This document shows, in pieces, positions 15,813 to 63,865 of a stretch of DNA of 64,000 bases (within the stretch, counting starts at the first letter, position 1; each line of letters starts with the position of its first letter). The notes under the pieces are model-generated. The model made no database searches, was not told the origin of the DNA, and saw only the letters and a program-made list of their open reading frames with translations. The position numbers were made by a program, and so were the translations under genes. Origin of the DNA: Naegleria gruberi (lineage: Eukaryota); NCBI GenBank assembly GCA_000004985.1, contig GG738911.1; one strand, 5' to 3'.

Positions 15813-16130
15813 GCTCTCATTCTTGAACCCGTATCCAAATTTCGTCTCGCCAAAGTGTTAATGGTTTAACAAAATAAAACACATTTGGTTATGTTGTGTT
15901 TAAAAGTGTGTTAGAAGAAGTAAAATTAAATTCCTTTTGTTTTGTCCTTCCGAAACAAAGATTGTTTATTACATAATAAATTGATTGTTTTGATTTTCGA
16001 AATGATGAAAGTATTGTTTAACAATAGTAATTTAGATCGAACCAAACAAAAGGATCTTTATTTAGTCTCCACTATAAATTATTCCGAAAAGACCAAACAA
16101 AGCCAATACTGTTACTGTGAAAACAAGAGG

Positions 16131-16300
16131 GCACCATTATAAATATTTATCACGGTTGCTTCATACATCACCACAGCCACCATTATAAATATTCATCACA
16201 GTTGCCACCATTATAAATATTTATCATGGTTGCTTTAAATTACAGTGCCCACCAATATAAATATTCATCACAGAACCCACCAATCATTATTACCACAAAC
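16131..16300 (+). repeat. tandem array (4-5 copies, 28-45 bp) of direct repeat CCACCATTATAAATATT(C/T)ATCAC(A/G)GTTG just upstream of the Ulp-like gene
   Basis: Directly visible copies at about 16131, 16177, 16206, 16250; each contains TATAAATA; last copy about 40 bp before ATG 16313. Confidence 0.7.
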
Positions 16301-16312
16301 CATTAAAAACAA

Positions 16313-18608
16313 ATGCCACCAAAAATACAACCTCCTACATGGTCGGAGAATGATAGAACAAACATAAAACAAATGTTTGATGCTTTTAAAAACAAATCTA
16401 TCCCTGAAAATGTTGATTTAATGAATTATGGTAGATATATTGCAAATAACTATTTAAATAGTAAAATTGTATTAGGAAATTTAAATACAAACAAAAGTAA
16501 CACGTGGAAAGAATGGGAAAAAAAAGGTTATTTAAATGATTTAGAATACTTCTATAATAATTTACAAGTGAAATACTATTTAACAAATATTAAACTATCA
16601 CCTACTAATAATCCGATTGTTGGAAATAATTATTTGATCGGAAAGGAAGTACAAGTAGATCCTAAAAAGTTATTATTTAAATCTACAACAACCAAAACTA
16701 TTAGATTAGGAAAAGGTATTTTAAGTACAATTAATGAAAATAATTATTCTATGAAAGATATTATTTATAGTACTAAATATAAAGAATGTTTTAATGAAAC
16801 AAATAGTTCATTAGATATTCCTAAACATTTGCTTTTTGAAATACCAATTGATTCTAACAAATCTACTCCAATATCAAAATGTCAAACTAAAACAGATTTA
16901 AATTTACAATCAATCAAACAATCATTCCCTCCATTATCAAGCGAAGTTGAAGAAAGTAATGTTTTTGATAATAAGGAATTAAAAATTAAAGAATTATTAA
17001 TAGATTCAACTAATGATGATGATGATAATTTGTTCGATATGGATTTAGTTTCAGAAATCTTGAAAAACAAAACAAAACCTCCATCAACTCCACCATCAAC
17101 AAAACTACCCACAACTTCTCCACCAACAACTCCACTAACAATTACTCCAACAATACCACCAACTCCACTAACAATTACTCCAACATTAGATTCTCTATTA
17201 CAAATTGCCACACCAGTAATTTTAAAAGGAGAAGAAAAAAAAAGAAAATTCGATGATTATGAAAATGATGAACAAAATGAAAAGGTTTTAAAAAGATATA
17301 TAAAATCATTAGAAGAAAAAATTAATAAGTTAGAAAAGAAAATAGAAAAAAAATCCAAAATTATTGAAAATCTTATGGAAAATCAAAACAATTCCAAGAA
17401 AGTATCAGAAATTGAATATATTATACAACAAACTAAACCTATTGCCGAAAATATTATTAATAATTCTAAAATAGTACAAAATTTTATTGGTGATGTTAAT
17501 GAATTATTAAGTCAAACACATAATTGTAAACCTGTTATTATAATGGAAAAGAAAAACAAAATTATTTTATCAGATGAGGAGAAAAATAATTACTTAAAAA
17601 TGATTACTTATCATAATGATAAATCAGTAACGTTTAATTTGGATAGTATATTAGGTAAACAAATAAGAATTTCTGAAAGCCAATATCAACAATTATTAAA
17701 TAGAGGAAATTTAAAATCTGGATTTACAAAAAACTTATTTTTGGAATTTTTTAAATTAAAATCTTCAGATTTAACAGAAGAACAAATTGAAAAGGTTTTT
17801 AGATTCTTGGCTATAATTAAACCAATAACTTTTGATAAAAAAAGATTTAAAAAAGATAGGAAAAATTTGGAAAAGAAAAAAACAAAAAACGATGATGATG
17901 ATTTTGAAGAAAATGAAATAACAAAAGATATTAATAATTCTGATAATGAAAAATTTGAAATATCAGATAATAATGTTAATCAATATGATCTTACAAATAA
18001 TTTAGAATGTATGTATTAATAATTTAATGTTAAATTTTTTAGTTTTATTTATAAATAGAGAAAGAAATATGATTATGAATAATGAATGGTTAAACGGAGA
18101 TATAATGGATAAATATTTACATATTTTACAATTACAATTCCCTTTTCTTCATTTAACAAAATGTTCTCAAAGTATTTATTTTTTGGATACTGTTTTACGT
18201 ATTATTAAAAGTGCAGAAAAAATAATAGATTATTCAAAACTTAATTTTGTTACACTCAATATACCAGGTACACATTGGTTGTTATTATGTATTAGTAAGA
18301 TTAAATCAATTGTTTATATGGACATTATTGATTCTAAAATTGATTTATTATGTGACAATCTTAAAAAAATGTTAATTAAATCATTCACACAAAACTTTTT
18401 ACCAGAAAATTGTGAATTAGTTTTAAGAAATATCAAATGTAAACAACAATCAAATGGATTTGATTGTGGATTATATGTGTTATCATTTATCCGTCAAATA
18501 GGTCAATCAAATATTGAAAATTTTAATCTTAGTAATATCAATTTTGAAAATACATTGATTATAACAAGAAACGAAATGGCTGAACAGATTAAACCAAATG
18601 GTAATTAA
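16313..18608 (+). CDS. Ulp1/SENP-like (C48, clan CE) cysteine protease with long low-complexity/Pro-Thr-rich/coiled-coil N-terminal region
   Basis: ORF 18027..18608 has catalytic signature: H in GTHWLLL, D in YMDIIDS, Q..C in QQSNGFDCGLYVLSF; domain start WLNGDIMDKYL. ORF 16313..18019 (568 aa) is in an adjacent frame. A 34-nt GTATGT..TTTTAG element (18009..18042) would join them in frame; alternatively a frameshift or two ORFs. Coding DNA is visibly AT-richer than neighbouring genes. Confidence 0.6.
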
Positions 18609-18690
18609 ATAAAGCTTCATTATTTTATGTTTTTATTAAATAATCAATTAACAAAAGTAATTTAGAAGAACTAAACAAAACCTATTTATA

Positions 18691-18790
18691 GCCACCATTA
18701 TAAATATTCATCACAGTTGTTAATTACAGTATATACGGTTAACGCTTACAACGACAACTTCAAGGGCACCATTTATTAATATTTGGCGCC
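18691..18790 (+). repeat. two further copies of the same TATAAATATT-containing repeat downstream of the Ulp-like gene
   Basis: GCCACCATTATAAATATTCATCACAGTTGTTAATTACAGT at 18691 and degenerate GGGCACCATTTATTAATATTTGGCGCC at about 18765. Confidence 0.6.
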
Positions 18791-19413
18791 AATATTAATT
18801 AAAAAAAACAACCATACAACACACTTGGCTTATAATTGGAGGTGATATGTTGTATTAATATTCTTACAACTTTTAATACAACCAATAAGTTATTATTATA
18901 TTATAATTTAATATTTGTTTTAGTATTAATGGTAGTTAGATTATTAAAATTAGAAGAATAATAAAGAATAAATAGATTAAATATTCCCGATTTAGTCATT
19001 CGTGTAAGACATGAATTGATTTGTAATATATAAAACTAATCTCTCTCTTTACTTCTTGTAAGTAATTTATATTGGAATTTAAATTCAATTATTGTAGTTA
19101 ATTGTGTGGAAATGGAAGAAATGTGAGGAAATTTAGTATGAATATTGATGATCTTATCTTTTTGAAGATGATGGAAATAATGATGATAGTAATTAAGAAA
19201 ATATTTTAAATGATATAGTAGTGATGAAGATAACGATGGAAATAATAATGAAGTTGGAATAATATATCACATGTTTCCCTCTGCGGAATACTTTTTACCA
19301 TTCAGAACTTTATATCTGCTTAATCCAATTATGAAATTTTCTTAATCTAAACATTAATAAACATTCTTCTCGAGTTTAACAAAATTGACTTTGTGCATCA
19401 AAATCATCTATGT

Positions 19414-19599
19414 TTCGTTGGTCCAAACTATCTTTATATTTTAGACAAAACCATATTGGTTTGGTTAGTCAAAACTATTTTGGTTTGATTGGTCCAAACA
19501 ATCTTCGTTTAGTTAGTAAAAACCATGTTGGTTTGGTTAGTCGGACCGGTGTTGGTTTTGTTGGTCCAAACAATATTTGTTTTGTCAAACAAAACAAAC
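19414..19599 (+). repeat. 24-bp minisatellite (about 7 units), each unit an imperfect palindrome TTGGTTTG-NNNNN-TCCAAACAA
   Basis: Units ttcgttggtccaaactatctttat / ttggtttggttagtcaaaactatt / ttggtttgattggtccaaacaatc / ttcgtttagttagtaaaaaccatg / ttggtttggttagtcggaccggtg / ttggttttgttggtccaaacaata / tttgttttgtcaaacaaaacaaac. Period 24 keeps an 8-codon frame (ORF 19410..19700). Confidence 0.75.
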
Positions 19600-19678
19600 T
19601 CGGCTTCACAAATGGCAAACCAAATTTATTTATTTTAAATTGGTCCATCCGTTTTTTGTTTTGTGCGGAGCGATTTCC

Positions 19679-19993
19679 TCATTTTAGATCGACAAAATAA
19701 AGGACCGTCCTGACACTAGGGAATATTCTGAATATCAGATGTCTTTCACAATCAGATACGTACATGTCCTCTTCCATGCCAAAACAAATACCGCATGGGG
19801 TTTTGAGATAGGCATACTTGGCATCAAACATAGTCAGCATGTCATGACCGCTGGCAGTGTTTCCAATCAATGTTTGCACTTTATAATCGAGTGCATGTAC
19901 GAACAATGATGGAGATGTATCTTGTAGGAGTAACATGCTGCTGACACATGTCAACAACAGCAAACAATGGATTGTTACAAAGGGCGTGGACAT
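19679..19993 (-). CDS. small ORF with N-terminal signal peptide (possible first exon of a secreted protein)
   Basis: MSTPFVTIHCLLLLTCVSSMLLLQ followed by hydrophilic region; no downstream exons identified. Confidence 0.3.
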   Translation of the reverse strand: MSTPFVTIHCLLLLTCVSSMLLLQDTSPSLFVHALDYKVQTLIGNTASGHDMLTMFDAKYAYLKTPCGICFGMEEDMYVSDCERHLIFRIFPSVRTVLYFVDLK

Positions 19994-20371
19994 GGTTTCT
20001 TTTTTTTTGAAAGTAACAATTACACGTTAGCCCAACAATTACAAAATTGGACCTTTACACCATCCAATATACATGGTAGTATCGGAAGAAACGCAAATTC
20101 CCCAACACAGAATTCTCCCTAGTTTTACTCAGCTGGAGTTGGGTTTAAAAGAATTCTGTTGGTTTTCTCGTGGTGTTCTAAATCATCGGTGATACATTGC
20201 TGCTTAGTAGGAAGTACTTCCACTCGAACAAACTTTTGGATTTGTCGCGGTTACACTGATGGATGCGCGTTGCTATTTTTTTAAAAAGCGTGTTTTGGCG
20301 CCTTTTTTGTGAATAACAGAACCACAACAAGAGAAGTAAGAAAACTTTATGTTGGTATTTTAGGTTTAGTC

Positions 20372-23300
20372 TCATTTCGAAAGTGCTTGAATTCTCTGGA
20401 GTATTTGTGAAGGACTAATTCTACTGGCAGGATCATATCGTATCATTTCCCACAATAAATCACAACAGAGTTCAAATACCTCCCCTTGGTACTTCACTTT
20501 CTTACTAAATTGAACAATGGCAGGGAGAAGAACTTTCGTATCGGCCTCATCATTTCCTTGCTTGACTCTCAGCAATACAGATGCATAATCTCCTGAAAGC
20601 AGTTGATAAACTATGCATCCTAAACTCCAAATATCACTTGGTGGTCCGAATTCTCCCTTAATAATTGCTTCTGGAGCACTGTATTGTAATGTACCTTCGT
20701 AGGCAGTGAGATTGGAACGATGTTGATGTCTTGATGATCCCCAATCACCGACACACAATAAAAAATCATTATTCCATTCCAAGATGGATTTTGATGAAGA
20801 TTGAGGGTTTTCTGGAGCTTTTGCAATGAAAATATTGGTTTGTTTCAAATCTCTGTGGACCATTCCTTTTGAATGGAGATAGTCGAGAGCAGATGCTATT
20901 TGCTTGATAATTTCCAAAACTAATTCTATTGGAATTTGATTTTGATGGGTGTGAATCCAATTTCTCAAATCACACTTGTACAATGGCATGATGATACAAA
21001 TGAATAAACTATTCTCGACCATTGTACAACCTAAAATTGGTACTATGAAAGGATTGGATTCCTCACTCAATTCATACATATTTACAACTTCCTTAAATTC
21101 ACTTCCAAATGGATTGGTAACTTCAATCTGTTTCACAGCAAATAATTCATCAGTTGTAATCTCTTTAAAAATAAATACAGATCCATAAGCTCCACTTCCT
21201 AATTTCTTAACTAGTACATATTCCTTTTCACGAATTCTGAAATGATTTCTTGATGATAAAAGGTTTGGTGAGCTCGTTGAGGCAAGAGGACTGCTGATTG
21301 ATTTACTATTGCCAGGTAAATCTCTTGGATGATTTTCGACCTCATCAATGGTTTGAAGAGATACTGCTGTCTTATTGGTTGATGAATCTATTGAACTAAT
21401 TGTTTCAGGTTCTGAACGATAAACAAATGATGGTAAAAGACTCTTCTTTTCTGGATCTTGGTTTTTGTTTCTTCTAAACTTTTTAAAATAGACAAATACA
21501 CCAATACCTATGAGTGCTGATGAGATGCAAAGGAGAATAATACTAACAACAATTGCTGCAGCTGTTCCATTTCCAGAATCAATATCTTGACAAAATTTTC
21601 CACTATACCCATCATCGCATTGACATTTTGTTGAGTTTTGATTGGAAGCATTTTGACTGAGGACACAAAGACCATTAGATGAACACCTTTTGGTTGAGTT
21701 TTGAGATGGGTTATTTGAGGACGGATCACAATCCAACCAAGAACATGTTTCTCCAAAATAAAAAGGAAAACACGAACACTTATTGAATGAGACACAAACT
21801 CCTTGATCATTGCATCCACTAGTTCTCAATTTTCCAAAGCAGTAAGGTAATGAACAATCATTACCTCCATATTCTGAATTACATTTGCATGTGTTATTAG
21901 AAATGCATGAACCATGAGGTTGACAATTATTAACACCATCACAATTATATTGTGTGCATAGTTGACCTTCCCATCCACTATCACATTTACAAGTATTGTT
22001 GGAAATACATTTACCATTCGAGTTGCAACAGGTTGAATCATTTGCCAATTTCCCAAAACATATTGGAATGTCACAGAGATTTCCAACCCATCCCTCTTCA
22101 CAATCATAAATATTTGGTCCAACACATATTCCATGTTGTGATGGAATATCACAAGAATATGATCCACATTGCTCATTTCCTTTCCATCCACTTTGACACA
22201 AACATGTGTTATTTGAGACACATGTACCGTGTGAATTACACACCAATGAATTATTAGCTATTATTCCAAAACAAACTGGAATATTACACAAATCTCCATA
22301 CCATCCACTGGTACAGGAATACTGATTTGGTCCAATGCAATTCAGTCCATGTGTTGGCTTGGGAACATCACAAGAAAAATTGCTACACATTGAATTACCC
22401 CTCCATCCAGATAGACAGGCGCAACTTCCATTCACACAATCACCATGACCTGAACAAACTTGACCTTGTGAATCAATACACGAGTCAGAGTATCTCATTC
22501 TAATGGTAAAAGAATCGCTATATAGAAGAGCACCTTCTGTAGTTATGGCAACACCATTAGTTCCCTGAATGGCATCAGTTGTAACAGTTGAAATTATTCC
22601 ATCAGTATTAATCTTTCTGATAGCATTATTGCCTTTACAATCGTTAATACTCTCAACTAAAACCAGAAACCTACCTGAATCTGCAATGAAAATAACTCCA
22701 TTTGAGGTGACAGTCACTGCAAGAGGATAGCTTAATTGAGCACTAGTTGCTTGTTTCCCATCTCCTTGATTACCTCTTGTTCCAGTACCTGTTGTTTTCA
22801 TATCATTAACATTTGAGGACTAATTTGAAATATTTTAAGCTTACCTGCAATTACTGAAATAGTTCCTTTCGATAATTTCAAGATTTGATTTCCTCCACTA
22901 TTCGCAATATATAAATCCCCATTAGGAGTATAAAATAAACTTGTCGGATAATTCAACAAGTTCGAGGTAGAAAGTGTTGTAATGGTCTTATCATTATTGA
23001 CCCTCCTAATAATATTCACTCTACTATCTGCAAAGTCGAAGAGGAATTGATCTGCCCACAATGATGGAGGCGCCACGACACCACTAGGTCCAGATAATGT
23101 ACATGAAGTAGCTGGTAATCCATCATTACAATTTCCATTATTGGATGCATATTTTCCTGCAATTGTTGAAATTATTCCAGTATTGTCCACTAATCTAATT
23201 AAGTTATTTGCACTATCTGCAATTAAAAGGCCGAGTGAAATCTTGGCCATAGCTTTTGGCTGATTCAAAAGAGATTGGATTGCTGGAATGCCATCATTGT

Positions 23301-24657
23301 TATAACCAGAATTGGACAAACTACCAGCAATTACATTAGCAAAACCAGTTTTCAAATCAAGTTTTAAAACTGCTGATTGATAGGAAGTAAGGTAGACTTC
23401 ACTATCACTTATGACTTGTAATTGATTCAAGTTTCGTAAAAAAGAGCTTGAAGCTGGTACATTCGGATTAAAAGTATATGGATAGAATCCACTAAAAAGG
23501 AGAGGTGTTTCCAAAGTACGAAAATTAAACTTCATTACTTGGGTTGCTGCCACATTTTGCATGGTTGACTTGAAGTAAATATGATCGTGTGAGTCCCATC
23601 CAAAAAAGTTAATTCCCACAATGTTGTTATCATACAGAACTTTCACCTTTGCCAACTGTTGAGTGGTTTGATTGAATAAAAGTAATTGACCTCCACCAGT
23701 AGAAACAACATAAGATGAATCATAACCCAAACTGATAATATGTAATGGATTTGTAATGGGTGCAAAATTGGCCCAATTATAAACTATTCCATTTGTACTG
23801 AACTGTAATAATCTATTATATCCAGAATCTACAACAATCATTCCATCTGAAGAAAGGGCAATACTTGTTGGATTTGACATTTTACAACTCAAAGGATCAG
23901 CACCATTACAATTACTTGATGATTGAGTATTCACACCTCCCATAATAACCTTACACAGAACACTATTTTCATCAAGAAATGTCATGGTTCTAATAAAATT
24001 ATTCCCACTATCAACAATGTAAAATATTCCATTATATTTTGTAATCATAGTTGGAGCACGAATGGCATTATACATGGCAGGATCATAACTCAAAGAAAGA
24101 GTTCTCAAAATTCCACTTTCCATATCAACAACTCTTATATAACTAGCAAAATTATAGACATCCAATATAAATAGAGAATTTGTCGATTCATCCAAGTAAA
24201 CTCCACTCGGTGATGTCAATGAAAATTCAGTAGCCAATCCACTCAATGATGGTTTATCTTGAGGCACAGAACAAATTCCATTTCCTGCCACAACCACACT
24301 CATATTTCCAATAATCCTTCTCACCACACAAAATTGAATATCCGATAAGTAAATTATTGGCAAACCACTCGAAATATCCAAAGATGATACATGAATATTA
24401 CCTTGTGGTGCTACAATTGGAAAATGGTAGGAATCAATAGTAGTGCCAATACTTCCGGCAACCATAATATTAGCATTAGAATATAGACCAGCAAATTGAT
24501 TCTCCAACTCCTTGGTTGAGTCAATTTCGACTGCAGAAGCTTCTGCTCGAATACTAATGTTGTGATGATCACAGTTGCAAAGTGTGATTACTGCTGTCGT
24601 CGTCGTGAGAAACCCCAAAATGATGCAAAGAAAGAGCTGCAGGAGTGATATCTTCAT
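20372..24657 (-). CDS. receptor-like Ser/Thr kinase #2: signal peptide + NHL-repeat ectodomain + many EGF-like Cys repeats + TM + kinase; 2 exons
   Basis: complement(join(20372..22788,22845..24657)). Signal peptide MKISLLQLFLCIILGFLTTTTAV; NHL blades; repeated CxSGWxGxxC EGF-like modules; TM AAAIVVSIILLCISSALIGIGVFVYF; kinase LGSGAYGSV, AVK, HRDLKQTN, DWG (variant DFG), SAPE. A 56-nt GTAAGC..ACAG intron joins the two ORFs in frame. Confidence 0.8.
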
Positions 24658-30878: not shown

Positions 30879-31808
30879 ATGTTAGAAGCCATACTGAATT
30901 TTTTCTATTGGCTTTTGGCTTTGATCGGATTAGGCCAAGCAACACAACAACAACAAATTGTCGCTCCGGAACAACATCAAGATGAAGAAGAACATCATCA
31001 TCAACAACGAAGAAATATTCCGGCAGCAAGAGGACAAATACGGAGAAGAAAGAATGCTGCTGCTTCTGCTTCATCATCAACAAATGATGATCACGAATCT
31101 GCTAGTAGTGGCAGTGATGAAAGTGATGATGATGGTTCGGATCATGATTCTGAAGCTGGGGAAGAAGATATTCATATTCATTCTAAACTTACAAGAAATG
31201 AACGTGTAAATTTGAAAAAGATGGAAAAGAGACGTCAAAAGCAAGCCTTGAAGGAACAAAGAGAGGCCATGGTTCAAGCTGAAAAGGAGAGAAAGACTCA
31301 AATGAAAAAGAAAATGGAAGATGAGGAATTGGAACGTGAAGAAAAGGAAGCTGAATTGAGAGAAGCTGAAAGAATTCAACGTGAAGAAAAGGAAAAGAAA
31401 AAACAAGAGGAATATGAAGAATGGCGTCACTTGTTTGAAGTTTCTGAACAAGGTGAAGGAATTGATTCTGATATGACTCATAATGAGAGCATTTTGAGTG
31501 AATTTATCAATTACATCAAGGATCATAAAGTGGTTGTTCTTGAAGATTTGGCAAGTGAGTTCAAGATCAAGACTGAACATTGCATTAATAGAATTAAATC
31601 TCTTGAAGAGGAGGGTAAAATAACAGGTCTCCTGGACGATCGTGGTAAATTTATTTATATTTCCAAGGAAGAAATTGAAAAGGTTAAACAATTTATTTTA
31701 CAAGAAGGTAGAATTAGCATTTCAGATTTGAGAAATGAAAGTAACAAGTTAATTAATCTCAAACCAAAGGAAGAAGATGTAAATATTGAGGAAATTCTGG
31801 TGAAATAA
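30879..31808 (+). CDS. DDRGK domain-containing protein 1 (UFM1-binding protein, UFBP1)-like
   Basis: N-terminal TM (ILNFFYWLLALIGLG), charged K/E-rich helix, and the literal DDRGKFIYIS motif plus C-terminal winged-helix region. Confidence 0.8.
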   Translation: MLEAILNFFYWLLALIGLGQATQQQQIVAPEQHQDEEEHHHQQRRNIPAARGQIRRRKNAAASASSSTNDDHESASSGSDESDDDGSDHDSEAGEEDIHIHSKLTRNERVNLKKMEKRRQKQALKEQREAMVQAEKERKTQMKKKMEDEELEREEKEAELREAERIQREEKEKKKQEEYEEWRHLFEVSEQGEGIDSDMTHNESILSEFINYIKDHKVVVLEDLASEFKIKTEHCINRIKSLEEEGKITGLLDDRGKFIYISKEEIEKVKQFILQEGRISISDLRNESNKLINLKPKEEDVNIEEILVK

Positions 31809-41813: not shown

Positions 41814-43220
41814 TCAAAGGATTGTACCCAACTTGGATTTCACATCCAATGACTGACAATTTTTAAGAACTGTTTCAAAGAATTGTGCATTATCTGGAAT
41901 GTGATTGCACCACTCGGGAAGCTGAGTGTAAAACTCGTAGCACTTCTCACCGTGGAAAGAATAATAAAAGGCGTGAAGATGAATTAAAAACTCTCCATCC
42001 TTTGGCTCCTCTTTTGAGAATCGTTCCCATTGCATTTGCATCATTTCTTTTGCACATTGAGTTTCGTCTTGCTCGTTTCGTTTCATAATTTCCCATTTTT
42101 CTGGCCAAGGATTTTCCCAATTTTCTCCCTTATCAACCAATTCAAATCCAACATCGTTAATAATTGGATATCCCATCACTCTTAAATGTTCTCTGATTTG
42201 ATGTGTTCTGCCTGTTATTGGTATAGCAATTACAATACTCCTCGATGATGCAGGGTCGTAATAGATTCTTTTCACAAGTGTATAGGCCGTGTCTGTATTC
42301 TTTGGATCTGTGCTGTCCGAGCCGTTTTCACTCGAATCAGCTCTCCAAATAAAAGTCCAATCATTTTGCTTGTAGACCATTTTGTTTTTCACATGAATAA
42401 ATCCTTCCTTATCCTTGTGGAATGATTGACCATTTAGTAAGACATGCTCTCCGCTCATATTTTCTGTTTCAGGAAATTCTCCATAAACCTGGGCCAAATA
42501 GCACTTCCTTACATTGCCCTCCTTCATAGTGTCTTGATAAGATTTGGCCAAAGCAGCATTCCAAGTATGAATAAGTACGCCACTCGTTACCTTATCCAAT
42601 CTATGAATTAAAAACAATTTCCTTCCCAAGGCACTTTCCAATAAATAATGTAAACTATTCTTTACAAATCTTCCAGCTGGATGAACTGGAATTGAAGATG
42701 GTTTATCAATTACCAAAAACTCATCATCATGATACAAAACTCGAATAAACTCTCTATAGAGAACTGGCTTTTCATTCTTCCAATCTACCGTAACAATCTG
42801 ATCATTTGATCTTAATTTATATTCCAACACTGAAACTGAAGTCGGTTTCTGAGTGGTGAGTGTAATAATTCCCTTCTCAATCATTTCCTTACTCACTTGT
42901 TCTGGCATTTTGAATTCGGAGGACAAAACTTCCATTGTCGTCTTTTTAAACCATCTCGTTCTAACATTGGTTCGATGATTGGTTTTATGCGGTTTAACGA
43001 ATTGATAAATCCCTCCAAATAATTCAAATTCACTCCTCAAATCCAATTCAATATCATCCAAAGCCTTTCCATGAGAAAATTCATTATCATCGGATAATTT
43101 TAGAATAATTTTGTAATTAATTTTAGGCTTTTGTATTATCGGCTGATGATGTTCATCATTATTTTCTTCCTGTGTTGGTGAAGAGATGACATTTTGGTCT
43201 TGCAGCATTTTTTTTAACAA
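41814..43220 (-). CDS. RluA-family RNA pseudouridine synthase (RPUSD2-like)
   Basis: HRLDKVTSGVLI catalytic motif and the surrounding RluA core; 468 aa, single exon. Confidence 0.8.
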   Translation of the reverse strand: MLKKMLQDQNVISSPTQEENNDEHHQPIIQKPKINYKIILKLSDDNEFSHGKALDDIELDLRSEFELFGGIYQFVKPHKTNHRTNVRTRWFKKTTMEVLSSEFKMPEQVSKEMIEKGIITLTTQKPTSVSVLEYKLRSNDQIVTVDWKNEKPVLYREFIRVLYHDDEFLVIDKPSSIPVHPAGRFVKNSLHYLLESALGRKLFLIHRLDKVTSGVLIHTWNAALAKSYQDTMKEGNVRKCYLAQVYGEFPETENMSGEHVLLNGQSFHKDKEGFIHVKNKMVYKQNDWTFIWRADSSENGSDSTDPKNTDTAYTLVKRIYYDPASSRSIVIAIPITGRTHQIREHLRVMGYPIINDVGFELVDKGENWENPWPEKWEIMKRNEQDETQCAKEMMQMQWERFSKEEPKDGEFLIHLHAFYYSFHGEKCYEFYTQLPEWCNHIPDNAQFFETVLKNCQSLDVKSKLGTIL

Positions 43221-56251: not shown

Positions 56252-59200
56252 ATGAACAGTCAGCAGATCCAAAAACCACAACCAATAAGGACCATCAACA
56301 ACAACAATAACACAAACAGCTCCACCAAAGGAGGGAGCTCTTTAAAATTTGTGGTTCCAAACAACCAGAACAACACTTCAACTATTGAGAACCAGTCCAC
56401 TAACAACATTTCTTCTGAAATACAGGGCTGCAGAAGTGGTGTGAATGGACATGGATGCAGAATGAACAATCCACCGTCCTCCCCTTCATCGTATGTTTCT
56501 TATGATACCAAAACACCATCATCATGTACGGTACATGTAACGTACTTGAATGCAACCTCTCCTTCATCACCCAATAACACAAATAACACATGTGTTGCAA
56601 CTACAACAACAATACAGAATACGAATGCTTCTAATGGCAGCACCGAATCATCATTTAAAAGATTCCCAATTTCTCAATCTCCCTCCGTTATTGATCCTGC
56701 AGTCACCATGCAAGATCACTATTTCCATACGACAATCAAGACTGAAAATGCACAATTTAAGAATAAGTGTCCTTCTGTTTCCCCTAATAATACTACACCT
56801 TCCACTACTCCAAATTCTTATTCTAATACCTTTCAAGATTCTTCTGTAAATCCCCCAAATGACAGCAAGCCAATAGCGACCAGTCAACTATCACATCCTT
56901 ACAATACCTCATACCATAATAATAGTAACCAATCCAGTCTTAACTCTCCATTTGAAACAACAACCCATGTTGAGTATCCGACCATGCAACATTTACCAAC
57001 CTTGTGTTCTATTAACCCTACACAAACAACACCAATATCAAGCAATTCCCAACAAGCACAAACAACACAGTCCTCTCATCTTCACGTTAATCATCAACAA
57101 CAAACACAACAAAAACAAATACCACCCAATAGTTATGCAGCACGCCTATTTTCCATGAATAACAATAATATTCATCATCATCATCAACATCATCACTCAA
57201 CAACAATTAATCCGAATAATATTATTAACAATAGTCAAAGTTCTCCGAATAGTAGTAGTGGTGGTGGTCAACTAATCACTTCAATGAATAATAATTCAAA
57301 TATAACCATGAATAGTCATCATCAACAACAACAACCACAAATAATGAAGAGTGATTTGGGAATGAATAATAACACATGTGGTAATTCATCGAATAATAAT
57401 AGTACGACTGCTTCCATGTCATCTTTACCCACTCCCCAACCCATTCCTATAATGAATAACAACAAGGGAACAACAACAATTAATCATCAACATGATAATT
57501 CCATGTTGCCAAGTCCTATAATGATGACAACCAGTTCCTTTCCTCAGTACAATTCCATGCCGATGAATGTAGTGGCAAATAATTCTACACACCAAATAAT
57601 CACAACAACTGTTAGTGCTACTACATGTGGAGAACGGCATGGTGATAACTCGCCCACAACATGTGGTCACCATGTACAATTATCATCATTATCCAATATT
57701 AATCCATCCAATTCCTCCTCTTCACTGTCATCGAGTATTTCCAGTGGCCATGTGAAAAGTAATACTACACCAAACAATATATTAGAATCCACCCCTTCCT
57801 CACATCAACAACAACAGCAGCAACATGATGGATACAGTAGCACCACAAGTAGCAGTAGCATGTCATTGAAAGCATGCTCTTCGTCGTCAATTCAACAACA
57901 AAATGATGACTTGTCAATTTCCAGCCAACAACCAGAAAGAAAAAAGAAGCGAGTCAACCCACCTCCACCAATAATGAATAGTACAACCGGTCACCATCTG
58001 CCTCCATTTATTCCCATTCAACCACATCCTTCTCTCACACCAACCCATAGAAATCCTCCATCTCCAAACATGCATTCACAGTACCAACAGTTTGCAAAGA
58101 TTGTTCCTTTTGGTGGCATGTCTCAAATGCCAAATGTCGTTGGTCAACCACAACCACCTCCACATGGCATGCCAGTTCCTTTCTATCATAGCTTCACACC
58201 ATTTCCAACACCGATCACACCAACAGGAATTCCTCCAAGAATGTCAAATAGTAATATCATGAATGCAACACCATCTCCAACAACTCCAGTTCCTCTTGCT
58301 TCCTCTCCACAAGGAGATGCAATTTCCTCATCGTCCAGTAATTCAGATGACAGTTCAAGTAATACTCCAACCAATAGCCAACAGCAAAGTGCATCAGCTT
58401 TTCCTACCTCTACTCCTTCTTCACACTACTCGTATGAGATTGTCATTCCAGGAGATTCATGCTCCACAATTATTAAATTGAATGTTGGGTTAACTCTTGA
58501 TAAATTTCATGATATCAGAATGAAAAAGACAATATTTGAAGCTTTCATTGAAAATCAGAAAACTGTCAATGATGGAAGGTCTGGAATTTCAAATGAAACT
58601 CAAAAGATTAGTACTTGGAGGTTGAAACAAGTAGAAATTATTAAGAATATTTGCTTTTTCAGATTTAAATTGTTGGATGATGGAAAACCAGAATCTCCCA
58701 CTGTTGAATTGGACAAAAATGGTTATGAAATTAATGGAAATGCTTTGGCAAAAGTTTGTGAAAGTGGTCCAAGTAGATTGGCTTTTTCACTCGATTCCTA
58801 TGGTAAAAGAGTTTCCAAGAGATTACACAAAGAAAAGCTCGTCACTTGTCCATTTTTGATCACGTTGACAAATGGTACAAAAGATTTTGTAAAGTGTGTT
58901 TGTGTCCATTTGTGTATTAATAAGAGACAAAAGAAAACAGTAATCACTAGAGCAGATTTTGACACGTTACTGCGAGATAAGAGTTATATGGTTTCTCTCA
59001 TTTCTATATACGCAAGTTCAACAAAGAAAAAACCACTTGACGAGGAGTCATTGTCTTCTGATGAGGATGAACAACCACTCAAAATATTAAAAAGGGATCC
59101 CTCTGGCAGTGCTCACACAGAGTTGAGACTTAAACATGGACCTGGCTATATGGTTTCAATTAATAATGTTACCTTGAGATATCCATTTGCAGGTGTTGAT

Positions 59201-59431
59201 CCAGGACCTGTGGATAATTGGAGAGTTAGTTTAAAAGGTTCAGAGGGTGAGATTGATTGTCAAGTTTTAAGTGTTTCTACAGTTGAGTCCGAGAGCAGTT
59301 CATCATTCTCTACTGTTTCCATTTTCTTTGAGCTACCAATAATATCTACTAAGGTGTCAGTTCTGGTAGTCAAGTATAAGAATATTGAACAATCTTCAAA
59401 TGCTGCATTTTACATGATTGACGATAAATAA
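56252..59431 (+). CDS. Q/N/S/T/P-rich low-complexity protein with structured C-terminal about 330-aa domain of unknown function
   Basis: 1059-codon ORF; poly-N, poly-Q, HHHHQHHH tracts; C-terminal region non-repetitive and Cys-containing. Confidence 0.6.
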   Translation: MNSQQIQKPQPIRTINNNNNTNSSTKGGSSLKFVVPNNQNNTSTIENQSTNNISSEIQGCRSGVNGHGCRMNNPPSSPSSYVSYDTKTPSSCTVHVTYLNATSPSSPNNTNNTCVATTTTIQNTNASNGSTESSFKRFPISQSPSVIDPAVTMQDHYFHTTIKTENAQFKNKCPSVSPNNTTPSTTPNSYSNTFQDSSVNPPNDSKPIATSQLSHPYNTSYHNNSNQSSLNSPFETTTHVEYPTMQHLPTLCSINPTQTTPISSNSQQAQTTQSSHLHVNHQQQTQQKQIPPNSYAARLFSMNNNNIHHHHQHHHSTTINPNNIINNSQSSPNSSSGGGQLITSMNNNSNITMNSHHQQQQPQIMKSDLGMNNNTCGNSSNNNSTTASMSSLPTPQPIPIMNNNKGTTTINHQHDNSMLPSPIMMTTSSFPQYNSMPMNVVANNSTHQIITTTVSATTCGERHGDNSPTTCGHHVQLSSLSNINPSNSSSSLSSSISSGHVKSNTTPNNILESTPSSHQQQQQQHDGYSSTTSSSSMSLKACSSSSIQQQNDDLSISSQQPERKKKRVNPPPPIMNSTTGHHLPPFIPIQPHPSLTPTHRNPPSPNMHSQYQQFAKIVPFGGMSQMPNVVGQPQPPPHGMPVPFYHSFTPFPTPITPTGIPPRMSNSNIMNATPSPTTPVPLASSPQGDAISSSSSNSDDSSSNTPTNSQQQSASAFPTSTPSSHYSYEIVIPGDSCSTIIKLNVGLTLDKFHDIRMKKTIFEAFIENQKTVNDGRSGISNETQKISTWRLKQVEIIKNICFFRFKLLDDGKPESPTVELDKNGYEINGNALAKVCESGPSRLAFSLDSYGKRVSKRLHKEKLVTCPFLITLTNGTKDFVKCVCVHLCINKRQKKTVITRADFDTLLRDKSYMVSLISIYASSTKKKPLDEESLSSDEDEQPLKILKRDPSGSAHTELRLKHGPGYMVSINNVTLRYPFAGVDPGPVDNWRVSLKGSEGEIDCQVLSVSTVESESSSSFSTVSIFFELPIISTKVSVLVVKYKNIEQSSNAAFYMIDDK

Positions 59432-59580: not shown

Positions 59581-61128
59581 TTATTTAGTTTTCAGTTTTG
59601 CTTTTGGATTAAAGAAAAAACTATCAGCAGAATTTCCAACATCATACTTGACTCCTGGATCGTTTTCTAAATCTTCACATGATCTATATCTGTGAAATGA
59701 AGGACTTCTCAGTGCTTTTCGTTTCTTACTCTCAAGGGAAGGACTCTCAAAAAAGTTAATATCATTCATTACTTCATCCTCTTGACTTGTTGGAGATTTA
59801 TCAAATGAGGATGAAGAAGAATGAATATTCAAATCTTGTAAACTATTATCATCAAATAAATCAGATGAATCTTCACACATTCCCAGCGTAAAATCATTGA
59901 ATATTTGACTCTTTGTTGATCTTGGTGGAGGTGGCCTCATTAAAGAAAATCCATTCATAAATTCATCATCAGAATTATCACTCTCTAGGATTGTTGGACC
60001 AACAATGGTCGTAGATTTTGATGAGCTTATTGGTGTAATGTGATTAAAGTTAGCTTTGATCGTGGAAGGAAGTTTAAAACTCTTTACAGTGGAGGGACAG
60101 TTATTATTTGATTGATTGAGAGAAAGTGGCGTGGAAGGAGAAGGTGTCTCTAAAAACATTGAGGCAATACTAAAGTGTGAATCGTCAAGGTTTTCATCCA
60201 ATTGTTCTTGTTGTGTTGTAACATCAAAGGCACATTCAAACAGGTTTTTGTACACTGAGGAAGAACCTCTTCTTCCAAGTTTCTTTGTTGGGTTGTGTTT
60301 TTTAGGAGCACTTGGTGGAGGTTTCTCACCCTCTTCATCAGAATCATTCATGAAAATGTTCATATTATGATCGCTCTTACGTGTTGGTGATCTATCAGCT
60401 GTGGTAACATTTCTCAATTGATTTTCCTTAGTATATAATTGAGGTGTTGAAAAATTGAAACTCTTATTAGATAGAGCACTACCTAGACGATTTGCATGAT
60501 AACTGCTTCCATTGCTACTAATACTACTTAAACCAGCAGAGGAAGAGATTGATTGATTGGAGGAAGGTACAAAATTATTAATACGGGAAATATCAGGTGT
60601 GAATGGTGTGGAATACAGAGTTGGAGATACAGATTGCAAATTGGATGAAACTGGTCGAATGGGCGTTGAGCTAAATGCTAATCCATTCTGTTGTACCAAT
60701 TGTGGAGGTGATGGAGTAAATATCGAGTGATGATTACTTCTTCTTCTTGAAGATTGATTCGACTTGATTACACTGCTTATTTCAGTTGGTTTTTTAAAGG
60801 AAAATTCCAAGTGTTGAAAAGCAGATGAATTACTATGACAACTCTGTTCGCTGCTTGGAGTGGAATGCCAATGTAGAGGTGGACTATGTGATGATGATTC
60901 TAAAGAGGAGGGTGGAGAGGATGTACAAGGAGATCCCATCGTAAAGTTTGAAAAGGGAGAAAATATATGTGATTCAAAGGCTTGTTGGTGATTTTGTTGG
61001 GAGGAGGGTGTTTGTGGAAGTTTATAGGGATTATGTTGTTGAATCATTATAGAGGAGGAGGATGATGTTGTGTTGTTGCTGGTACCACCAACAAATGGCG
61101 AGGATGATGTTGATGGTGGTGGTAACAT
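59581..61128 (-). CDS. Ser/Pro-rich hypothetical protein (515 aa)
   Basis: Long ORF convergent with the preceding gene; low complexity, basic patches (KKRKALRS). Confidence 0.45.
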   Translation of the reverse strand: MLPPPSTSSSPFVGGTSNNTTSSSSSIMIQQHNPYKLPQTPSSQQNHQQAFESHIFSPFSNFTMGSPCTSSPPSSLESSSHSPPLHWHSTPSSEQSCHSNSSAFQHLEFSFKKPTEISSVIKSNQSSRRRSNHHSIFTPSPPQLVQQNGLAFSSTPIRPVSSNLQSVSPTLYSTPFTPDISRINNFVPSSNQSISSSAGLSSISSNGSSYHANRLGSALSNKSFNFSTPQLYTKENQLRNVTTADRSPTRKSDHNMNIFMNDSDEEGEKPPPSAPKKHNPTKKLGRRGSSSVYKNLFECAFDVTTQQEQLDENLDDSHFSIASMFLETPSPSTPLSLNQSNNNCPSTVKSFKLPSTIKANFNHITPISSSKSTTIVGPTILESDNSDDEFMNGFSLMRPPPPRSTKSQIFNDFTLGMCEDSSDLFDDNSLQDLNIHSSSSSFDKSPTSQEDEVMNDINFFESPSLESKKRKALRSPSFHRYRSCEDLENDPGVKYDVGNSADSFFFNPKAKLKTK

Positions 61129-61232: not shown

Positions 61233-63053
61233 TTAAACTTCTTCATCTTCCAAGAGGGATGAGGAGGATGCATTGGAATGATTGTTAGAATTGAAGAGAA
61301 TCAAATCCTTGATGGCCTCCTCTTGAGAATTGTATGAATATTTGGTGGAATTATCATTTTCCAATAAGCCAACATGGAATGTGATTGCTTCCCTTACAGT
61401 TTCAATCTTCTTGAGTAGTGGTTTCATGTAGCCAATAAATACCTCCAACAGCACGGATGCAACCTCAGAATCTTGTGTTTCCAATGGTGGTACTGTTTCA
61501 CTATTTGATTTCTTCTTTTCCAATAAACCTCTACACTTGAGAATGGCATTGAGAAAGTAGGATGTCTTTTCATTCTTACAAACCTCCTTAGCAATATTAA
61601 CAAAGAGAATGTTGGTATTTTTCTCTTCTGAATCCTTCATGGCCATCTCAATCTTCTTGACCAAGCTCATCATGTAGTCGATTGTCCTGTTCAAGTGATA
61701 GAGAACCTTATCGTTGAATTCCTCTAATCTGGCTTTGTGATCGAGAGAATGCACGTGTGGAAGGACATCATCTAGTTTGTTATCGAAAATCATGAACCAA
61801 ATTCTGCCTTCTCTCATCGATTCGGTAATTAACATTTCATTGGTCTTGTGAATGTTCAAATACCAATCAGATTTGATTTTGTACATGTACCCATTTGATA
61901 AAACCATGACATATCCTTCATGACCCTTCTCATCCTCTATTGCTTTCTTAATTCCTTTCATATCTGTTTGTGAGATGATTTCTGGATTTTCACAAGATTT
62001 GACACATTCAATTCCATACCCTTTACAAGAACTTTTCATTTCTTCGTACGGAATGAATGATCCCAAAATTGTATGTCTCAAGGCGAGCAATGAAATGAAT
62101 GGCTTATTTCCGTAATTTACAACAACTCTGTGATCAGGTGAAAAATATTCGAATAGTGGTGTGTAACCTCTATTCATCCACTCGACACAAAATTTCACTA
62201 ATTGGGCGTATGATCCCTTATCTTTCAATTGATCCTCCAATGAATGCATTCCAAAATCAATTACAAACGGTATGTCTCTAGTTGATTCACATTCTCTTCC
62301 ATCCTTGACAGATTCAATTGCAAAGAGTGGAAGCTTGGATTCGTGTAATTTCTTTCTCTTCTCATGATATTCCCTGTTGATCTCATCTTGTTCTGAAACA
62401 TCACTCGATTGCCCCTTTACAAGATTCAATTTTTCCAATTCATATACAAATTCCTCAATGGATTGAGAGTGATCATTCTGATAGTCCAACTTGGTTCTAA
62501 ACCTCAATCTGAAATGTTTCTTCTCTCCAGAATCATCCTTCAAAAATTCAATGATAGGAGTGCACAAACTACCATCCAATTTTTCCAATAATGTGAAAGG
62601 TCTCTCCTTTCCAGTTTTCTTTTTCAATTCACTGATCAATTTTTCAATAATTTTAAAATTGGTTTCTTCCTTTTCATCCACATTGAAGAATTTTGGCATG
62701 GAACGACCAACAATTCTCCTACTTTCTCTATCAAAGCACAGTCCACGAATTTCTCTTCTCAACAACCTTCTTTCAATTTCCTCATAGGAATCCAAATTAA
62801 TATTCAACTGTTTTGTATTCTCATCAATGAGATGAGGAATGAAGGGGAAACTATCACTTGACACCACTTTATAACTCACAAATGTAAAGTCATTATTCGA
62901 TTGAATGACAAATCCCCTTGTTGTTCCGATATTTTCAATCACTTGATCCAAGGTTTCTATTCTTGGATAGATGAGTGGTTCACTGGCAGAAAAAGGAGCC
63001 TCTCTCTTCATATCAGTGTTGGTGTGGGTAATTGCAGTATTAAATGCTGACAT
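61233..63053 (-). CDS. ATP-dependent RNA ligase-like nucleotidyltransferase (T4 Rnl1-like) with extra C-terminal domain
   Basis: Motif I LLEKLDGSL (KxDGS), motif IV GHEGYVMVL (EGYV) and motif V YKIKSDWY (KxK) in canonical order and spacing. Confidence 0.65.
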   Translation of the reverse strand: MSAFNTAITHTNTDMKREAPFSASEPLIYPRIETLDQVIENIGTTRGFVIQSNNDFTFVSYKVVSSDSFPFIPHLIDENTKQLNINLDSYEEIERRLLRREIRGLCFDRESRRIVGRSMPKFFNVDEKEETNFKIIEKLISELKKKTGKERPFTLLEKLDGSLCTPIIEFLKDDSGEKKHFRLRFRTKLDYQNDHSQSIEEFVYELEKLNLVKGQSSDVSEQDEINREYHEKRKKLHESKLPLFAIESVKDGRECESTRDIPFVIDFGMHSLEDQLKDKGSYAQLVKFCVEWMNRGYTPLFEYFSPDHRVVVNYGNKPFISLLALRHTILGSFIPYEEMKSSCKGYGIECVKSCENPEIISQTDMKGIKKAIEDEKGHEGYVMVLSNGYMYKIKSDWYLNIHKTNEMLITESMREGRIWFMIFDNKLDDVLPHVHSLDHKARLEEFNDKVLYHLNRTIDYMMSLVKKIEMAMKDSEEKNTNILFVNIAKEVCKNEKTSYFLNAILKCRGLLEKKKSNSETVPPLETQDSEVASVLLEVFIGYMKPLLKKIETVREAITFHVGLLENDNSTKYSYNSQEEAIKDLILFNSNNHSNASSSSLLEDEEV

Positions 63054-63106: not shown

Positions 63107-63865
63107 CTAAAATTGCGTATTGTAATCTTCTGGATAATCATGTCCTGGTGGAATGTTTTTGCTATCATCGTCCTGGGATTTAAAGAGGAGAGTGTGGCTC
63201 TTTACATTACTTGCAATTGCTTTACATTCTTGATAGAAGAAAATGGAATGGAGCATGTGAAAATGAAAATAGAGATCTACCTCTTTGGTTGGCATTACTC
63301 GTCGATTTTCTTGGAGGAATTGAATGTAAGTACTCTTTTGGCCGATATCTGCCTGTGAAAGCTGGAATATATGCTCATCAAGGAATAATTCCAAATACTT
63401 GACTTGCTCTTTCACATCTTTGACTTGAGCCATTTCTTCTGAAAGACTATTATAGAAGAAGAGCTTGGGATTAAATGGATGGTGTGTTGGCAAGGCAATA
63501 CCATTTCCTTCTGAAGATAGTAAATGTAAATAGTCAATTTCAAGATCTTTTGGAAATTCACATGAGCTGAAATTGGCATGTTGATTCAAATTATTTCTAT
63601 TTTCAAGTATTTTTGTAAAATTCAAAGGAATTAAATCAGAGGGGCAATTACTGTAGTAATCATCCAATAGAATAAAGTGAAGTCCAATTAAAACATCATC
63701 TGGTGCAAAATCAAAACACTTGTGCTTTGATTCATTCAAGAAATGTTTCGCCTTTTCCATCATCTTTTCAAAATACCACACCTGATCTGGATCTTGGGAT
63801 AATATTAATAGTGAGTCATTCAATTTTTTTGTAATATCCTTTAAAAATTGAAGATAAAGAGGCAA
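63107..63865 (-). CDS. hypothetical protein; upstream part probably continues beyond an intron or the window end
   Basis: 252-codon ORF reaching close to the window edge; no family assigned. Confidence 0.35.
   Translation of the reverse strand: MPLYLQFLKDITKKLNDSLLILSQDPDQVWYFEKMMEKAKHFLNESKHKCFDFAPDDVLIGLHFILLDDYYSNCPSDLIPLNFTKILENRNNLNQHANFSSCEFPKDLEIDYLHLLSSEGNGIALPTHHPFNPKLFFYNSLSEEMAQVKDVKEQVKYLELFLDEHIFQLSQADIGQKSTYIQFLQENRRVMPTKEVDLYFHFHMLHSIFFYQECKAIASNVKSHTLLFKSQDDDSKNIPPGHDYPEDYNTQF

Follow-up and report, generated by a model that had tools for sequence, protein, structure and literature searches.

The window analyzed here is a 64-kb stretch (64,000 nucleotides) of contig GG738911.1 from Naegleria gruberi (GenBank assembly GCA_000004985.1), and the gene under study lies on its reverse strand at 61233..63053, as an open reading frame (ORF) that runs from ATG to stop and specifies 606 amino acids (aa) plus the stop codon. 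The product of this gene is, in all likelihood, a stand-alone RNA ligase that depends on ATP, is catalytically competent, and belongs to the Rnl1 clade as typified by the T4 enzyme. A homology search returned the N. gruberi “predicted protein” EFC38139.1/XP_002670883.1 (NAEGRDRAFT_81726, UniProt D2VYM3), whose gene sits on a 261-kb scaffold, as 100% identical to the ORF product. This accession is on the list of seven Rnl1-family members reported for N. gruberi, together with five Rnl2-type, one Rnl5, and two RtcB ligases, by Unciuleac and Shuman (RNA 2015, PMC4408790), who describe the Naegleria RNA ligase set as the largest known in any eukaryote (13 ATP-dependent enzymes and 2 RtcB). The existence of the gene and its Rnl1 family assignment were thereby published in 2015. 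An earlier reading of the DNA made without database searches (the sequence-only reading) had arrived at the same family; the observation is real and the assignment correct, and the finding as stated was already in the literature. That reading had also taken stand-alone enzymes of this type to be rare in eukaryotes; the present protein does stand alone, whereas rarity is weakened by the seven Rnl1-family ligases of N. gruberi, and with the accession already among those seven, the argument from rarity and novelty loses force. What is new here is the placement of the protein in Rnl1 in the strict (post-2018) sense rather than in Rnl6, the clade of Trl1-like enzymes, along with a map of its extra segments, the lineage restriction of an insert, and a eukaryotic clade in a rough tree. 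These points leave the current picture unchanged, since gene and family were published in 2015.

Family assignment, motif alignment, and superposition of a predicted structure all agree on a T4-Rnl1-like, ATP-dependent, stand-alone RNA ligase in a eukaryote, as the sequence-only reading had proposed. In a hidden Markov model search, which that reading had named as a check, the profile of Pfam family PF09511 (RNA_lig_T4_1) takes in the protein with 95.4 bits (gathering score, 28.3; E = 6e-27), matching two stretches with an insert between them, and is the sole Pfam domain detected. PHROG 562, named “RNA ligase and tail fiber protein attachment catalyst,” matches with E = 3.9e-44, and a sequence search of the PDB yields three T4 Rnl1 chains (2C5U, 5TT6, and 9DO4; E about 2e-12) as the only significant matches. 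By these Pfam and PDB E values, the match to T4-type Rnl1 is far beyond chance.

The motif strings EKLDGSL, EGYVMVL, and YKIKSDWY, picked out from the DNA at the outset, are present from residues 157, 379, and 391 and align to T4 K99-x-D-G, E227-G228, and K240-x-K242, respectively. The motif I lysine and aspartate thus coincide with the catalytic positions of the ligase (K158 with T4 K99 and D160 with T4 D101), and K158 is predicted to be the AMP-attachment lysine. We compared the Naegleria protein with phage RB9 gp63, a T4-type RnlA of 374 aa, and 16 relatives in an 18-sequence alignment (MAFFT) and examined the same query columns in a second, larger alignment of 120 sequences. Twelve T4 positions (R54, K75, F77, K99, D101, G102, K119, E159, E227, G228, K240, and K242) are invariant in the smaller alignment, and so are the corresponding query columns in the larger one, save K188, which is at least 90% conserved. 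F122 (T4 F76) is likewise invariant, together with R103, K121, and F123, as expected of a member of the group with an Rnl1-type N-terminal subdomain. The list of residues essential in T4 Rnl1 reportedly goes back to Wang, Ho, Pei, and Shuman in 2003 (J Biol Chem 278:29454). R54 and K75 of T4 Rnl1 are essential and both touch the ATP γ-phosphate, and F76 touches the adenine (PMC6379707). The order of the motifs is typical of Rnl1-type enzymes, as had been claimed, and the spacing between motifs IV and V, 13 residues, equals that of T4; the claim of typical spacing does not hold between the motif I lysine and the motif III glutamate, which are 144 residues apart here (K158 to E302) versus 60 in T4 (K99 to E159), the difference being due to a 73-aa insert and smaller loops.

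What distinguishes the RNA ligase clades Rnl1 to Rnl6 is the module attached to their nucleotidyltransferase core (PMC6379707), and the fold of the C-terminal region is therefore decisive for the clade. The predicted structure superposes on T4 Rnl1, another check suggested from the sequence, over 345 residues at 2.6 Å, and a Foldseek search with this structure retrieves T4 Rnl1 with E = 3e-14 (TMt 0.67–0.70) and its next match with E = 4e-6. Because nearly the entire T4 enzyme superposes, the T4 C-domain (residues 255–374) is covered. Sequence comparisons reach into the same region: a phmmer alignment with T4 Rnl1 extends to T4 residue 306, tblastn matches to T4-like phages extend to query residue 505, and a profile of heterolobosean C-domains matches the C-domains of shorter relatives with E = 3.6e-17 over its first ~85 columns. 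Closer to the C terminus, a conserved helix, LLEVFIGYMKPLLKKIETVREAIT, is aligned by MAFFT with the final helices of the C-domains of T4 Rnl1 and the phage-type enzymes. The predicted domain is thus the all-helical one of T4 Rnl1 and not that of Trl1, and the Rnl5 architecture, a DraRnl-type N-domain with no C-terminal appendage, is not found. As modeled, the Naegleria protein belongs to Rnl1 as strictly defined by T4 Rnl1, C-domain included. What the sequence-only reading had described as an extra C-terminal domain of about 200 aa is instead this normal Rnl1 C-domain, enlarged by ~40 residues, followed by a tail of ~45 aa (Table 1).

Table 1. Coordinates of ligase features in the window, with T4 Rnl1 counterparts, and of phage contexts of related ligases
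Feature	Residues	Position	Strand	Remarks
Tail	562–606	61236..61370	-	C-terminal; conserved motif, then disordered acidic/Ser-rich end
Tail motif YNSQEEAIKDLILF (Y-x-[ST]-Q-[EQ]-[EQ]-A-x-x-D-L-x-L-F)	573–593; motif at about 574–587	61275-61337	-	From orthologue alignment
C-domain	403–561	61371..61847	-	Predicted all-helical; counterpart of T4 Rnl1 C-domain (255–374), ~40 residues larger
Motif V YKIKSDWY	391–398	61860..61883	-	K392, K394 = T4 K240, K242
Motif IV EGYVMVL	379–385	61899..61919	-	E379, G380 = T4 E227, G228
Motif III PLFEYFSP	299–306	62136..62159	-	E302 = T4 E159
73-aa clade-specific insert	206–278	62220..62438	-	Between motifs Ia and III; from profile and alignment
Motif Ia RTKLD	186–190	62484..62498	-	K188 = T4 K119
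Motif I EKLDGSL	157–163	62565..62585	-	K158, D160, G161 = T4 K99, D101, G102
Rnl1-type N-terminal subdomain	29–130	62664..62969	-	R103, K121, F122, F123 = T4 R54, K75, F76, F77
N-terminal extension	1–28	62970..63053	-	Missing from ~400-aa family core
Met1-to-Met15 start region	1–15	63011-63053	-	Met1 in A-rich context (aaaaaaaATG)
Phage ligase-kinase contexts		L003 6001-7849; L002 3049-4814; P0014 contig		

The segments that the Naegleria protein adds were mapped by aligning it to a 399-position profile of relatives of ~400 aa, which are described below. Extra relative to this profile are residues 1–28, several loops of 4–8 residues, the insert at 206–278, and the unaligned residues 501–606. 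Residues 1–12 are predicted to be disordered (predicted local distance difference test score [pLDDT] <50). The start of the ORF is bounded by an in-frame stop 4 codons 5′ of Met1, so that no further 5′ extension is possible. The NCBI gene model of EFC38139.1 is 592 aa long and begins at Met15 of the 606-aa ORF, which is why the whole ORF has no exact match in a protein lookup. A 607-aa allele (P0121), found in the assembly of a second strain, retains Met1 and has an N terminus that has diverged to some extent. Upstream, a 252-aa ORF with no Pfam match (63107-63865, reverse strand) ends 53 bp before the ligase ATG and may run past the window end; it is probably a distinct gene packed close against the ligase and not an exon of it, because orthologue N termini begin within ~45 residues upstream of the conserved YPRI motif.

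The insert opens with a variable acidic stretch of species-dependent length, which is followed by a conserved helix, YHEKRKKLHESKLPLF, and two short strands; its consensus comprises the helix YHEKRKKLHESxLPIF and a conserved strand, IPFxIxF. It is predicted to be ordered, with means of 88–97 pLDDT for 10-residue blocks over residues 201–280. In Acrasis and the metagenomic sequence P0007 it is much shorter, and all remaining relatives outside Naegleria and Willaertia lack it. When the insert profile was run exhaustively (HMMER) against 1.84 billion representative proteins, it found its own cluster (E = 4.9e-23) and one other match, a metagenomic protein of 235 aa (P0124; E = 4.6e-5) with five tandem copies of CQENLTQYEDARKTLHSMKMPGKPYTVWR. 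These copies match just the 21-residue insert helix (YHEKRKKLHESKLP), and the resemblance is probably due to chance; no convincing insert homologue outside the clade was found among these 1.84 billion proteins. The insert and the C-terminal 111 residues, scanned alone against PHROGs, gave no matches, and a Pfam scan of the whole protein at E ≤ 1 gave nothing in either segment. An unspliced in-frame intron was considered as the source of the insert and rejected, as the segment is predicted to be ordered and its core is conserved as protein in the closest orthologues, including those annotated in N. lovaniensis and W. magna. The tail motif is kept in full by three Naegleria-type orthologues and in part by a fourth (P0002); Willaertia, Acrasis, and every shorter relative lack it, and it may serve as a docking peptide.

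Several observations weigh against the protein being an active, T4-type Rnl1. The NCBIfam model TIGR02308, the T4 RnlA equivalog, scores 82.6 bits, far under its cutoff of 242.25, and the protein is therefore a member of the family and not an equivalog of phage RnlA. The C-domain alone matches the single T4 C-domain sequence weakly (hhalign E = 0.044), and residues 501–606 are left unaligned by the family profile; the C-domain assignment therefore rests mainly on the predicted structure. A literature search found no characterization of any Naegleria Rnl1-type enzyme, the six paralogues included, and, in the library searched, no paper naming EFC38139.1 beyond PMC4408790. Apart from the ligase, the 64-kb window holds 29 ORFs of 200 aa or more, and among the 28 scanned with Pfam, no gene for a Pnk, CPD, or phosphoesterase was detected; the unscanned one is an ORF of 204 aa at 31077-31691, antisense to a DDRGK gene. 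Finally, substrate specificity could be shifted by the 73-aa insert and by the enlargement of the C-domain.

With the motifs intact and an Rnl1 fold, the three-step ligase pathway is the most likely function, and we consider enzymatic activity highly probable. K158 would attack the ATP α-phosphate to form ligase-(lysyl-N)-AMP, AMP would then be handed to an RNA 5′-PO4 end, and an RNA 3′-OH would attack the activated end to give a 3′-5′ phosphodiester. The C-domain of T4 Rnl1 targets that enzyme to tRNAs broken in the anticodon loop (PMC6379707), and with a T4-type C-domain fold predicted here, broken stem-loop RNAs such as tRNAs are the best guess at a substrate. This proposal, made by analogy with T4, is a tentative one, whose chances we put somewhat below even. 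The ends of such a substrate would first be healed to 5′-PO4/3′-OH by a separate kinase/phosphatase.

The alternative that survives best, and that we place on the unlikely side, is an active Rnl1-fold ligase that has been redirected off tRNA by its insert and enlarged C-domain; possible roles include general single-stranded RNA joining or circularization, repair of mRNA or rRNA breaks, and a developmentally regulated RNA rearrangement. In line with redirection, the insert is predicted to be structured, is conserved in Naegleria and Willaertia, and is unique to this clade, the C-domain is ~40 residues bigger than that of T4 and its second half cannot be aligned by sequence, and the seven reported paralogues suggest sub-functionalization. 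The superposition of the C-domain fold on T4 Rnl1 at 2.6 Å argues against it, and no positive evidence points to any specific alternative substrate. Insert, enlarged C-domain, and tail motif may nevertheless tune the choice of substrate or partner, a role that is speculative for the insert and the tail.

A Trl1-like (Rnl6) tRNA-splicing ligase, which would seal the 3′-OH,2′-PO4/5′-PO4 exon ends that arise when tRNAs or HAC1-type RNAs are spliced, as the fungal and plant enzymes do, is very unlikely. The ligase domain (LIG) of fungal and plant Trl1 (6N0T and 9QW7) does have an adenylyltransferase domain with an Rnl1-like N subdomain and shares the Pfam family, but the fold of its C-domain is different: the predicted Naegleria structure superposes on Trl1-LIG over 257–270 residues (~260), which is the catalytic core alone, as compared with 345 on T4 Rnl1. 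Motif I reads KLDG here, like KEDG in T4 and unlike KxNG in Trl1-LIG, and the sequence search of the PDB brings up no Trl1 chain even at E ≤ 10. Trl1 carries fused kinase and CPD domains and needs a 2′-PO4 (PMC6379707), whereas the Pfam scan finds PF09511 only and no kinase or CPD domain in the Naegleria protein. Splicing could be handled by the two N. gruberi RtcB ligases (PMC4408790). Another ligase of the same organism, NgrRnl (Rnl5; 5COT), shares the covalent lysyl-AMP chemistry and was the sole N. gruberi RNA ligase characterized as of the 2015 paper, whose authors carried out that characterization (Unciuleac and Shuman, PMC4408790).

The closest relatives of the ligase are Naegleria-type sequences, including that of N. 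lovaniensis, with 53–59% identity, followed by those from Willaertia magna (49%), the metagenomic P0007 (37%), whose gene adjoins an actin gene, and Acrasis kona (34%). Shorter eukaryotic relatives comprise the EukProt entry P0009, P0010 (beside a phosphomannomutase gene), P0011 (beside RhoGEF and LRR genes), and a protein of Balamuthia mandrillaris. Next come over 100 proteins that are ~400 aa long, a large share of them with the source label “T4 RnlA family.” Phage-type enzymes of this length (e.g., phiN3, DSS3_MAL1, and the metagenomic P0014/P0048) are the closest noneukaryotic relatives, at 25–30% identity over the whole length, and have neither insert nor tail. In a phage collection, 1385 records match the ligase, and the two ~400-aa relatives with contigs examined, as well as phage DSS3_MAL1, lie in phage-like contexts. 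Phage ligases also outmatch giant-virus Rnl1s in a viral structure library, where that of Sinorhizobium phage phiN3 is best (TMt 0.82); the long architecture of the Naegleria ligase occurs in no entry of this library. T4 Rnl1 itself (gp63) is about 22–23% identical. Compared with its 374 aa, the 606-aa Naegleria ligase adds the 28-aa N-terminal extension, the 73-aa insert, a larger C-domain, and the 45-aa tail. Its gene, a cellular one of a eukaryote, has no Pnkp nearby, and the protein falls under the TIGR02308 cutoff.

We placed the best matches to the query in a neighbor-joining tree (72 sequences, 386 columns), a rough tree made by a distance method and rooted on the T4-type enzyme. Twelve of its sequences were classed as eukaryotic, seven of them by source or gene context and the query plus four unnamed Naegleria-type sequences by similarity. 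Of 100 bootstrap replicates, 94 recover these 12 as a monophyletic group apart from the phage-type ligases, 94 recover the heterolobosean group, and all 100 recover Naegleria plus Willaertia. The groupings favor a cellular gene passed down vertically in Heterolobosea over a recent viral insertion, and, so far as this rough tree goes, the ligase gene is a cellular gene of Heterolobosea that has been inherited vertically.

A recent insertion from a phage, bacterium, or giant virus, an assembly contaminant, or a decaying relic without cellular function is largely refuted and extremely improbable. Most members of the family are indeed of the ~400-aa phage type, as the 1385 phage records attest, and among viral structures a Sinorhizobium phage ligase matches best. 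Against such an origin stand the orthologues in Naegleria-type sequences and Willaertia (49–59% identity) and in Acrasis (34%), the eukaryotic clade with its bootstrap support of 94/100, catalytic residues that are all intact, a host-like composition (GC of 0.36 for the gene versus about 0.335 for the window), the tubulin, EGF-kinase, and DDRGK genes that surround the ligase on a 261-kb scaffold, and the 607-aa allele in a second strain. A pseudo-enzyme or a nonligase role, modeled on the second, noncatalytic activity of T4 gp63 in tail-fiber attachment (PHROG 562 is filed under “tail”), is just as improbable, since all essential catalytic residues are conserved across the clade and tail-fiber attachment is meaningless in an amoeba.

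A broader proposal, which we regard as doubtful at present, is that the eukaryotic stand-alone Rnl1s of Heterolobosea, Balamuthia, and unidentified protists form an old, vertically inherited cellular sub-clade, and that its Naegleria/Willaertia branch gained the structured insert, seen in no other lineage, and the tail motif, which could retarget the ligase to a eukaryote-specific form of RNA repair, such as reversal of stress- or toxin-induced tRNA cleavage, or recruit a separate healing enzyme. If true, this would be the first cellular, nonsplicing Rnl1-type RNA repair pathway in a eukaryote. As a strict T4-type Rnl1 that is conserved across Heterolobosea and bears a lineage-specific insert, the Naegleria ligase is a reasonable candidate for the biochemistry of eukaryotic cellular RNA repair.

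The phage relatives suggest what a healing partner might look like. Each of the three phage contexts examined has, no more than ~140 bp downstream of its ~400-aa ligase gene, a P-loop gene resembling that of a polynucleotide kinase: the one in P0048 is an overlapping AAA_33 ORF, the one in P0014 comes after one 50-aa ORF, and the one in DSS3_MAL1, a P-loop kinase gene, is annotated as “zeta toxin.” In L003, the ligase and kinase ORFs overlap and a Metallophos gene is found further downstream. The best PDB sequence matches of the P0048 neighbor are the kinase domain of Clostridium thermocellum Pnkp, PNKP, and T4 Pnk, at modest E values of 2e-4 to 8e-3. These gene pairs look like compact RNA repair cassettes in the classic heal-and-seal layout. 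The Naegleria gene, in contrast, is alone: the search for an adjacent kinase or CPD gene that the sequence-only reading had recommended found none next to the ligase in the window, and an absence of such adjacency is as expected for a eukaryote. By analogy with the phage pairs, the healing partner would be a separately encoded kinase/phosphatase; a literature search for a Naegleria polynucleotide kinase gave reagent mentions only.

Outside the ligase gene, the window is unremarkable Naegleria chromosome, with tubulin, EGF/NHL receptor-kinase-like, DDRGK, RCC1-like, pseudouridine synthase, and epimerase genes and several low-complexity orphan ORFs. A search of its six-frame translation with the family hidden Markov model found no second ligase copy, and the window contains no tRNA genes or Rfam families. 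The pseudouridine synthase gene (41814-43220, reverse strand; PF00849, E = 3.7e-22), ~18 kb from the ligase, encodes the sole other RNA-acting enzyme seen in the window and shows no sign of a functional link to it. Beside the ligase gene lie two ORFs rich in N, Q, S, and T and with no Pfam match, one of 1059 aa on the forward strand (56252-59431) and one of 515 aa on the reverse strand (59581-61128), and the 56–58 kb region has a strong GC skew (-0.375). Positions 16001-20000 are AT-rich (GC of 0.245–0.273 versus about 0.33 elsewhere; AT skew, 0.217) and harbor a 568-aa ORF with no Pfam match (16313-18019, forward strand). Finally, a cluster of teneurin-like EGF/NHL ORFs occupies 12148-13992, 20372-22801, and 22798-24657 on the reverse strand, the first two with a protein-kinase domain; the latter two, encoding EGF plus kinase (20372-22801) and NHL (22798-24657) segments, abut and may form one gene.

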